A stretch of DNA of 19,636 nt, taken from assembly GCF_002803295.2 (NCBI RefSeq), contig NZ_PGGB02000004.1, positions 82,265-101,900 on the forward strand. The letters run 5' to 3'. The DNA comes from Caedibacter taeniospiralis. GTDB taxonomy: Bacteria; Pseudomonadota; Gammaproteobacteria; Francisellales; Francisellaceae. The notes beneath the pieces were generated by a model. The model was not told the origin of the DNA. It ran no database searches and saw nothing but the letters and a program-made list of their open reading frames with translations. The position numbers were made by a program, and so were the translations under genes. Of this stretch, positions 17,776-19,411 are shown one piece after another. How positions within the stretch are numbered: position 1 is the stretch's first letter; each line of letters opens with the position of its first letter.

Positions 17776-19411
17776 TAAGGAGGTGATCCAGCCGCAGGTT
17801 CCCCTACGGCTACCTTGTTACGACTTCACCCCAGTCATGAATCACAAAGTGGTAAACGTCCCCCTTACGGTTAGACTATCTACTTCTTTTGCAACCCACT
17901 CCCATGGTGTGACGGGCGGTGTGTACAAGACCCGGGAACGTATTCACCGCGGCATGCTGATCCGCGATTACTAGCGATTCCGACTTCATGCGCTCGAGTT
18001 GCAGAGCGCAATCCGGACTACGAACACCTTTCTGAGTTTCGCTTCAGCTCGCACCTTCGCCTCCCTCTGTAATGCCCATTGTAGCACGTGTGTAGCCCTG
18101 CCCGTAAGGGCCATGATGACTTGACGTCGTCCCCACCTTCCTCCGCCTTATCAGCGGCAGTCTCTCTAGAGTGCCCAACTTAATGATGGCAACTAAAAAT
18201 AAGGGTTGCGCTCGTTGCGGGACTTAACCCAACATTTCACAACACGAGCTGACGACAGCCATGCAGCACCTGTCTCATAGTTCCCGAAGGCACAACAAAA
18301 TCTCTCTCGTCTTCTATGGATGTCAAGGGCAGGTAAGGTTCTTCGCGTTGCATCGAATTAAACCACATGCTCCACCGCTTGTGCGGGTCCCCGTCAATTC
18401 CTTTGAGTTTTAACCTTGCGGCCGTAGTCCCCAGGCGGAGTACTTATCGCGTTTGCTGCGCCACTAATCCTTTTACACCAGGACCAACAGCTAGTACTCA
18501 TCGTTTACAGCGTGGACTACCAGGGTATCTAATCCTGTTTGATCCCCACGCTTTCGTCCCTCAGTGTCAGTTCAACCCCAGATTGTTGCCTTCGCCATTG
18601 ATGTTCCTTCCGATCTCTACGCATTTCACCGCTACACCGGAAATTCCCCAATCCTCTAGTAAACTCTAGTCAAACAGTTTCAAATGACCCTCCCAGGTTG
18701 AGCCCAGGTATTTCACATCTGACTTATCTGACCACCTACGAACCCTTTACGCCCAGTCATTCCGATTAACGCTCGCACCCTCCGTATTACCGCGGCTGCT
18801 GGCACGGAGTTTGCCGGTGCTTATTCTTTCGCTAACGTCAAACTATCCAGCTCTTAACCTGATAGCCTTCCTCACGAACTAAAGTGCTTTACAACCCTAA
18901 GGCCTTCTTCACACACGTGGTATTGCTGGATCAGGGTTGCCCCCATTGTCCAATATTCCCCACTGCTGCCTCCCGTAGGAGTCTGGGCCGTGTCTCAGTC
19001 CCAGTGTGGCTGATCTTCCTCTCAGAACAGCTATGGATCATCGCCTTGGTGAGCCTTTACCTCACCAACCAGCTAATCCAACGCAGGCTCATCATACAGC
19101 GACCGCTTGCGCGACCTTTCACCCTCAGGCTTCATGCGGTATTAGCAGACGTTTCCATCTGTTGTTCCCCTCTGTACGGCAGATTCCTACGCGTTACTCA
19201 CCCGTCCGCCGCTATCTAGAAACTAGAGACTAGAAACTAGAAAGTGGAAGTCGAACCTTACCAAGCAAGGTGATTCTTTAGAATAAATCATCGCGCAGCG
19301 ATTCAACCCCTAGTTTCTAGTTTCTAGTATCTAGTTCCTAGACCGCTCGACTTGCATGTGTTAAGCATACCACCAGCGTTCAATCTGAGCCAGGATCAAA
19401 CTCTTCAGTTT
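17776..19411 (-). rRNA. rrs: 16S rRNA gene (1636 bp) with one insert in helix 6
   Basis: 5' end: the reverse complement is AAACTGAAGAGTTTGATCCTGGCTCAGATTGAACGCTGG. 3' end: GTCGTAACAAGGTAGCCGTAGGGGAACCTGCGGCTGGATCACCTCCTTA. Universal blocks are present throughout (GTGCCAGCAGCCGCGGTAATAC, GCATGGCTGTCGTCAGCTCGTG). AT-rich segments at about 19440-19475 and about 17715-17755 are partially complementary and probably form the RNase III processing stem. Ends are accurate to about +/-3 nt. Confidence 0.95.
19216..19341. mobile_element. Heptamer-armed palindromic element replacing 16S helix 6 (V1)
   Basis: Left arm CTAGAAA CTAGAGA CTAGAAA CTAGAAA (19216-19243). Right arm CTAGTTT CTAGTTT CTAGTAT CTAGTTC CTAG (19310-19341). 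The core at 19244-19309 is of the same type and orientation as the H25 copy. The flanks are GCAAGTCGAGCGGT... and ...TAGCGGCGGACGGGTGAGTAACGCG, i.e. E. coli positions about 60-107. Confidence 0.85.

Follow-up and report, generated by a model that had tools for sequence, protein, structure and literature searches.

Heptamer-armed hairpin cassettes throughout one rRNA operon, including a probable intervening sequence of the RNase III-excised type in helix 6 of the 16S rRNA gene

The tip of helix 6 in a 16S ribosomal RNA (rRNA) gene was replaced by a heptamer-armed element of 126 bases in the stretch of DNA analyzed here (19,636 nucleotides [nt], hereafter the window). The element was best explained, with a probability of approximately 0.6, as an intervening sequence (IVS) of the type excised by RNase III, belonging to a modular family of hairpin cassettes. 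Members of this family, with related arms made of tandem seven-base repeats, also occupied the 16S–23S spacer and the 23S rRNA gene of the same operon. The gene for 16S rRNA and its cassette's parts are given below.

17776–19411, minus strand: 16S rRNA gene, 1636 nt, exceeding the E. coli gene by approximately 94 nt; matched over its full length to RF00177 by cmscan
19310–19344, minus strand: 5′ arm of the 16S cassette (RNA sense), GGU, then CUAGGAA CUAGAUA CUAGAAA CUAGAAA CUAG
19244–19309, minus strand: core of the 16S cassette, 66 nt, orientation A, with homology to the window's four other cores (nhmmer)
19213–19243, minus strand: 3′ arm of the 16S cassette (RNA sense), UUUCUAG UUUCUAG UCUCUAG UUUCUAG AUA

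On the plus strand, the arms were read as four CTAGARA units at 19216–19243 (CTAGAAA, CTAGAGA, CTAGAAA and CTAGAAA) and five complementary units at 19310–19344 (CTAGTTT, CTAGTTT, CTAGTAT, CTAGTTC and CTAGACC). The element stood in place of the helix 6 tip beyond the first few base pairs, between the RNA-sense flanks GCAAGUCGAGCGG and GGCGGACGGGUGAGUAA and at a distance of 70 nt from the 5′ end of the 16S rRNA. The junctions were precise, and the closing pairs of the helix were kept. The initial annotation had described a 126-bp heptamer-armed replacement of helix 6, and this description was correct to the base according to both the sequence and the small subunit (SSU) covariance model. The covariance alignment that it had suggested as a check was run with cmscan. 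The bacterial SSU model RF00177 (1512.5 bits, model positions 1–1533) placed 109 nt as an insertion in the hairpin loop of helix 6 and fitted the outer heptamers to the stem of this helix. In the alignment with E. coli, the insert was located at positions ~70–90.

The repeated units were concentrated in the rRNA (rrn) operon, which held 86 of the 101 CTAG sites in the window, and runs of four CTAGNNN units occurred 22 times in the window versus 0 times in 200 shuffles (GC content of the window, 41–45%). The 16S element folded as a single rod with an energy of −68.1 kcal/mol (z = −7.9 versus shuffles). The main stem, including the core rod, comprised 39 bp with 5 G·U pairs. The arm duplex was approximately 29 bp long with one 1 × 1 mismatch, and IVSs are recognized by a terminal duplex of at least ~20 bp. 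The placement was also that of an IVS, because the element lay inside an rRNA gene and turned the apex of a surface helix into an extended stem-loop.

The 16S element was not isolated. At least seven related heptamer hairpins were found in the one rRNA operon, where six inverted array pairs were present besides the 16S element and each 16S–23S spacer gap adjoining a tRNA gene was occupied. Insertions in the 23S rRNA gene were mapped by alignment to E. coli rRNA, and the helix names used here are those that we take to apply from the E. coli secondary-structure map. The downstream genes of the operon and the cassettes and other insertions within it are as follows, in the order of transcription.

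17546–17661, minus strand: arm-only hairpin with 11 R-type units, a short loop and 4 Y-type units, ending 1–2 nt before tRNA-Ile
17468–17544, minus strand: tRNA-Ile gene, 16S–23S spacer
17327–17466, minus strand: spacer cassette 1, core in orientation B, filling the gap between tRNA-Ile and tRNA-Ala
17250–17325, minus strand: tRNA-Ala gene, 16S–23S spacer
17109–17248, minus strand: spacer cassette 2, arms and core identical to those of cassette 1, between tRNA-Ala and the 5′ processing stem of the 23S rRNA
13009–17074, minus strand: 23S rRNA gene, 4066 nt, with ~1.15 kb of insertions at six sites (RF02541, 2531 bits)
16807–16936, minus strand: 23S H9/H10 insertion (E. coli ~139–173), ~100 nt, R-type heptamers in an internal run, Y-type partner absent
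16297–16439, minus strand: 23S helix 25 (H25) cassette (E. coli ~541), heptamer arms and homologous core in orientation A
15243–15681, minus strand: 23S helix 45 (H45) IVS (E. coli ~1162–1186), heptamer arms and an open reading frame (ORF) at 15286–15636 (116 aa)
14590–14692, minus strand: 23S H63 insertion (E. coli ~1730), a perfect 103-nt hairpin with a 20-bp stem, not of the heptamer type
14158–14450, minus strand: 23S H68 insertion (E. coli ~1868) of 293 nt with the 15-bp inverted repeat CCTACCACTTAATTA at its ends, carrying a GIY-YIG gene
13105–13242, minus strand: 23S helix 98 (H98) cassette (E. coli ~2791–2807), perfect heptamer arms and homologous core in orientation B
12853–12967, minus strand: 5S rRNA gene, last in the operon (cmscan)

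A homologous core of ~66 nt was shared by five copies, namely those in the 16S rRNA, H25, H98 and the two spacer cassettes (nhmmer E values of 1e-18 to 1e-20). The cores were described by the pattern CGCTKCGCGATGA-N10-30-CAYCTYGCNNNGYAAG, and their consensus folded into a rod of 59 pairs, 5 of which had compensatory changes. The 16S core was ~77–80% identical to the others. The cores of 16S and H25 were oriented one way, and those of H98 and the two spacer copies the opposite way. The arms are inverted repeats, and the element is thus the same from either strand; hence, recombination between arms could flip the core. The ORF of the H45 IVS encoded a protein of the 23S_rRNA_IVP family (PF05635, E = 7e-32). 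The possibility that the 66-nt core was derived from this IVS was rejected, since the nhmmer core profile matched only the five cassette copies. The GIY-YIG gene of the H68 insertion was split by a 2-nt frameshift (start at 14421, second part at 14163–14372), and the joined protein matched PF01541 with E = 2.7e-16. The initial annotation had treated the helix 6 element as a singleton. That view was abandoned, because the arms recurred across the 16S rRNA, the spacer and the 23S rRNA and the core was present in five copies; membership in a cassette family changes what the finding is about. The cassette plan would consist of two arms, one of tandem CTAGARA heptamers and the other complementary to it, enclosing a variable core, which may be the shared 66-nt rod, the ORF of a 23S_rRNA_IVP protein or nothing.

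Each hairpin of the operon folded locally in the rRNA-sense transcript into a near-perfect duplex of 25–35 bp, and the two strands were not equivalent. A transition in one arm of a palindrome gives a G·U pair on one transcript and an A·C pair on the other. In the main stems of the sense transcripts, 79 G·U pairs were counted versus 6 A·C or C·A pairs (hairpins from the window and five other loci). When both strands were folded, the sense strand was more stable than the antisense strand for 15 of 16 non-redundant hairpins (Wilcoxon p = 9e-5); over the 16 hairpins, G·U pairs numbered 165 in the sense strands and 34 in the antisense strands. The values for the 16S element were −66.2 kcal/mol with 11 G·U pairs (sense) and −51.3 kcal/mol with 1 G·U pair (antisense). 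The bias held for both core orientations and hence tracked transcription rather than the polarity of the element. The excess of G·U pairs and the stability of the sense strand point to selection on the RNA. The initial annotation had already read the element as an IVS. This reading is now better supported, because the same arms flank the classical, ORF-bearing H45 IVS and because the asymmetry is in the RNA sense; excision and fragmentation of the 16S rRNA, which were part of the same proposal, we still infer.

The main rival of an excised IVS is a retained expansion segment, that is, a rod of ~150 Å kept in the mature 16S rRNA and extending the helix 6 spur. Proteins or rapid assembly, for example, would shield its stem from RNase III. 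Helix 6 is a peripheral spur of variable length, the covariance model took the outer heptamers as its stem, and several mismatches were present in the stems of some cassettes, all of which are in line with retention. Moreover, the strand asymmetry shows selection on the RNA fold and cannot tell a retained helix from an excised one. However, a near-perfect duplex of ~29 bp is a canonical substrate of RNase III, and identical arms flank the type of H45 IVS that was excised experimentally in Coxiella (PMC4990558). Furthermore, the cores differed between the operons of one metagenome-assembled genome (MAG) and occurred both ways, and this speaks against a structural function in the ribosome. Retention was judged unlikely, although it is the most serious competitor of the excised IVS.

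Other rRNA operons were reached through homologues of the H45 IVS protein, and the helix 6 insertion site was known from this window alone. The stretch between the anchors on either side of the site measured 133 nt here versus 29–37 nt in six further 16S genes whose operons carry related IVSs. The initial annotation had advised that relatives be checked for the insert, and an ordinary short helix 6 was found in all six. The distribution was therefore sporadic, as is usual for IVSs, and an uncultured gammaproteobacterial MAG used a different 16S site. In this MAG (L034, L129 and L130), whose 16S rRNA was 84% identical to that of the window and had an ordinary helix 6 (L129), heptamer-armed inserts occurred in 16S helix 17 (E. 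coli ~451–468) at L129 6731–6841 and L130 6712–6840. The cores of these two inserts, 93 and 111 nt long, were unrelated between the two operons and represented intragenomic 16S heterogeneity. Hence, heptamer-armed elements entered 16S genes at least twice, in helix 6 here and in helix 17 in the MAG. The MAG also had heptamer-armed H25 and H45 inserts and was without inserts at H9/10, H63, H68 and H98. A giant hairpin stood after its 5S rRNA gene (L129 12478–13038, the same as L034 2426–2986), with 33 R-type units, a spacer of ~245 nt and 11 Y-type units; its energy was −368 kcal/mol, and nothing comparable was found after the 5S rRNA gene of the window.

CTAGARA-armed H45 IVSs were present in a Wenzhouxiangellaceae MAG (L123), in the ENA contigs L124–L128 and L138–L140, and in the gammaproteobacterial MAG. 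H45 IVSs without CTAGARA arms occurred in L131, L132 and L141–L144. The 16S rRNA of the window was 82% identical to that of the Wenzhouxiangellaceae MAG and to that of E. coli, and the host, judged by its ~82–84% 16S identity to the gammaproteobacteria compared, resembles a gammaproteobacterium. Two independent contigs were much closer. The first (L122, ENA ERZ18645072, 1284 nt) was 99.8% identical to window positions 14459–15742, confirmed the H45 IVS and the H63 insert, and ended 9 nt short of the H68 insert. The second (L137, a metagenome contig from JACCDZ01, 1074 nt), found with the core-specific pattern, was 97.6% identical to positions 12808–13868; its H98 cassette had the same arms and differed by two substitutions in the core. 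It was the single metagenome match to the cassette core, which was absent from the ~130 fetched loci.

Bare (CTAGARA)n arrays were found at more than 120 loci in many phyla, mostly as single direct arrays of 3–33 units. The hosts among the matches listed (L002–L121) included Vibrionaceae, Bacteroidota, Planctomycetota, Acidobacteriota, cyanobacteria, the candidate phyla radiation (CPR) and others. The presence of CTAG in a 7-nt unit places a TAG stop codon in all six frames, so that the arrays cannot be coding. Among the matches listed, no array lay inside an ORF of at least 100 aa, the context was enriched in convergent genes (46 convergent, 34 tandem and 10 divergent), and stable-RNA genes stood beside the array at 3 of 120 loci. 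The paired-arm hairpin form occurred, among the 120 loci listed, in rRNA or tRNA operons only. Heptamer-armed hairpins filled the tRNA gaps of a tRNA cluster in the Wenzhouxiangellaceae MAG (L121, 676–968) and, in a Clostridiales MAG (L093, 154–240), the gap separating tRNA-Leu from tRNA-Ser. These hairpins were 3–9 nt from the tRNA ends, and the spacer of the window was arranged alike. This arrangement is consistent with a function in the processing of precursors or, at a minimum, with being tolerated by it. Among plasmids, bare arrays only were observed, on two ~9.3-kb Acinetobacter plasmids (including L147, pTR11_3); four viral contigs carried a heptamer array, and no array match was obtained in the phage collection. 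No description of the CTAGARA repeat was found in the literature searched.

The wide occurrence of the arrays bears on the idea of a purely DNA-level selfish repeat, either similar to a miniature inverted-repeat transposable element (MITE) or an inversion-prone palindrome grown from a slippage-prone heptamer, with no role in processing. Terminal inverted repeats and multiple copies, as in MITEs, were indeed observed, with five core-sharing copies with inverted arms, in two orientations and one operon. The arrays occurred mostly singly and outside stable-RNA genes, and heptanucleotide repeats are a known over-represented class (PMC4679880 and PMC4692102). However, the 165:34 asymmetry of G·U pairs and the advantage of the sense strand are not predicted for a strand-neutral palindrome, and paired hairpins were limited to rRNA and tRNA operons among the loci listed. 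In addition, no transposase was found in the window and no target-site duplication at the inspected junctions, including those of H25 and H98; the AGCGG motifs flanking the 16S site were native 16S sequence rather than a duplication. The sole ORF-bearing element with these arms encoded PF05635, which is not a known transposase. All known copies of the core belonged to one rrn operon, of which a strain-level relative retained the H98 copy. A purely selfish repeat was considered improbable, and a selfish origin would be compatible with excision by RNase III, so that the two explanations overlap.

Other classes of element were also considered. No group I or group II intron was matched in Rfam at the gathering threshold in the window, and no intron match was obtained at E ≤ 1 when the 16S element and the H63 and H68 inserts were searched; the group I intron of L123 was detected as a positive control. 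That intron, with a LAGLIDADG gene, occupied L123 11078–11756 in the 23S rRNA gene, besides the heptamer-armed H45 IVS. The sub-threshold Rfam matches to the 16S element were only to plant microRNA-precursor hairpins and reflected generic long hairpins. A tRNA-like core was rejected, as ARAGORN called just tRNA-Ile and tRNA-Ala.

The window ended in a complete minus-strand rRNA operon with 16S, tRNA-Ile, tRNA-Ala, 23S and 5S genes. The anti-Shine–Dalgarno, 530 loop, 790, 926, 1400 and 1492 motifs of the 16S rRNA were all intact, and conventional long processing stems flanked the 16S and 23S rRNAs (23S stem, ~32 bp, −55 kcal/mol), which suggest that RNase III already matures this operon. The initial annotation had named a non-expressed pseudogene as the alternative that would undo its reading; the intact motifs and the conventional flanking stems indicate that the 16S gene is not a pseudogene. 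The 16S leader/trailer stem (17700–17775 and 19440–19500) was itself composed of AT-rich ~8-nt repeats, UGUUGAAU with the complementary AUUCAACA, and represented a second operon stem based on simple repeats. These data also concern the explanation that the cassette was stitched into the 16S gene during assembly or that this rrn copy is decaying and non-functional. The arrays recurred ~14 times in 6.5 kb, contigs of relatives from short reads broke nearby (L122), and the 16S insert was not found in a second assembly. However, the 16S core was unique and hence not copied from elsewhere in the operon, and the junctions replaced helix 6 precisely, on which grounds an artefact or pseudogene is unlikely. 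The H45, H63 and H98 inserts were confirmed in independent assemblies, and decay is contradicted by the intact motifs and the full-length model score. This explanation was regarded as very improbable, the least probable of those weighed here.

For the excised IVS, the following sequence of events is proposed. The hairpins would form co-transcriptionally, and RNase III would cut in the heptamer duplex, as in the H45 IVS of Coxiella; the excised hairpin would then be degraded. The 16S rRNA would be left as a 5′ piece of ~70–85 nt and a piece of ~1450 nt, both held by helices 1–5 and ribosomal proteins. The 23S rRNA would be left in up to seven pieces joined through the surrounding helices. The cassettes may spread and swap cores within and between stable-RNA operons via recombination of the periodic arms, in which slippage by 7 nt would be tolerated with pairing kept. 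The use of the arms as homology for ectopic recombination would account for the combination of common arms and exchanged or inverted cores, and only insertions at the tips of surface hairpins would survive.

Several points weigh against the excised IVS. Excision, the cleavage sites and the retention of the fragments are steps that we infer. Fragmentation of 16S rRNA is rare, and one strand of the central pseudoknot would be located on the detached 5′ piece. The rnc gene was not in the window. The mechanism of mobility is speculative, given that neither a target-site duplication nor a transposase was evident. A transcription-associated C-to-U mutation bias could supply part of the G·U excess. 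Furthermore, the junction of the 16S insert gave 0 matches in the Joint Genome Institute (JGI) metagenome scan, and exact look-ups of two antisense ORFs overlapping the insert gave nothing.

The origin and movement of IVSs have been an open question since their discovery in 1990. Several recently related copies in one operon, with simple arms, make spread, core exchange and site tolerance testable. The sites extended beyond the classical set of H9/10, H25 and H45 to 16S helix 6, 23S H98 and the spacer. If the cassettes are excised, the ribosome would be assembled from approximately nine rRNA pieces, with the first ~70 nt of the 16S rRNA as a separate molecule, and would offer a test, set up by nature, of the degree of rRNA continuity that a bacterial ribosome requires. 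A broader and tentative proposal, which we regard as doubtful, is that (CTAGARA)n hairpins are a portable punctuation module for stable-RNA precursors. Inverted pairs seeded by the widespread repeat would have become self-propagating RNase III cassettes that exchange cores and have colonized tRNA and rRNA spacers and both rRNAs in several lineages. If true, the ribosome here would be more fragmented than any other seen in bacteria to date (16S rRNA in 2 pieces and 23S rRNA in up to 7), and the first concrete mechanism for the movement of IVSs would be at hand. There are practical consequences as well. V1–V2 amplicons of this lineage would exceed the usual length by ~100 nt, assemblies from short reads are interrupted at the rRNA operon by the repeated arrays, and the 4.07-kb 23S and 1.64-kb 16S genes will fail length-based quality filters. 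Elsewhere in the window, a gene for a VapC-type tRNA(fMet)-specific endonuclease toxin was located at 2455–2880 on the plus strand (NF047863, E = 6e-50), and its neighbors were the housekeeping genes rimO and ubiG, a phosphoglycolate phosphatase gene and a tyrP-like transporter gene; an exact look-up of the RimO protein gave no record.

The cassettes were compared with known systems. H9, H25 and H45 are classical sites of 23S IVSs, and the H45 IVS of Coxiella burnetii has a 28-bp terminal stem in which RNase III cuts (PMC4990558). The 23S IVSs of Salmonella (H25 and H45) and of Coxiella burnetii, Leptospira and Yersinia (H45) share with the cassettes the conversion of a surface helix tip into an extended stem-loop and the sporadic presence among relatives, and the H45 version encodes a protein of the S23p/PF05635 family. 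By comparison, the stems here were made of tandem 7-nt units, with the same arms at no fewer than seven sites including 16S, H98 and the spacer, and the ORF-less copies had a common 66-nt core; excision is presumed here on the model of those IVSs. Known 16S IVSs likewise lie in variable 16S hairpins. The 16S rRNA of Caedibacter caryophilus reportedly has a 194-bp insert in its 5′-terminal part and is fragmented (Springer et al. 1993), and this species is a precedent for a functional 16S rRNA split near the 5′ end. Further 16S IVSs are said to occur in Clostridium paradoxum (Rainey et al. 1996), in Helicobacter canis and Campylobacter helveticus (Linton et al. 1994), and in Rickettsiales endosymbionts from acid mine drainage (Baker et al. 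2003). We know of no 16S IVS with heptamer-repeat arms or with sister copies in the 23S rRNA and spacer.

The Correia/NEMIS elements of Neisseria are transcribed miniature inverted repeats that are cut by RNase III. Together with the Rickettsia palindromic elements, they resemble the cassettes as short, ORF-less, multi-copy hairpins whose transcripts are RNase III substrates. Correia elements, located in mRNA leaders, have 26-bp terminal repeats of unique sequence as well as a TA duplication, whereas the cassettes had simple-sequence arms with no duplication seen, and the copies found were all in stable-RNA operons. Among known heptamer repeats, TAACTGA of Beggiatoaceae and cyanobacteria (PMC4679880) and GGGAATC of Xanthomonas (PMC4692102) share with CTAGARA the intergenic 7-nt arrays over distant phyla and a unit with stop codons. 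They differ in the unit itself, and inverted pairs as rRNA or tRNA hairpins are undescribed for those repeats. Insertions of at least 100 bp occur in 1.1% of 16S genes versus 18.5% of 23S genes in non-CPR RefSeq genomes (PMC11270868), in agreement with the statement of the initial annotation that IVSs are rarer in 16S than in 23S rRNA. The CPR insertions in the same study are likewise many per gene, and some encode GIY-YIG or 23S_rRNA_IVP proteins outside introns; however, most are group I or group II introns with LAGLIDADG genes, whereas no intron model matched here. The IVSs of rRNA, those in 16S included, were thus already known, and what is new is the construction of the arms from heptamer repeats, the common core and the occupancy of several sites across the 16S rRNA, the spacer and the 23S rRNA.

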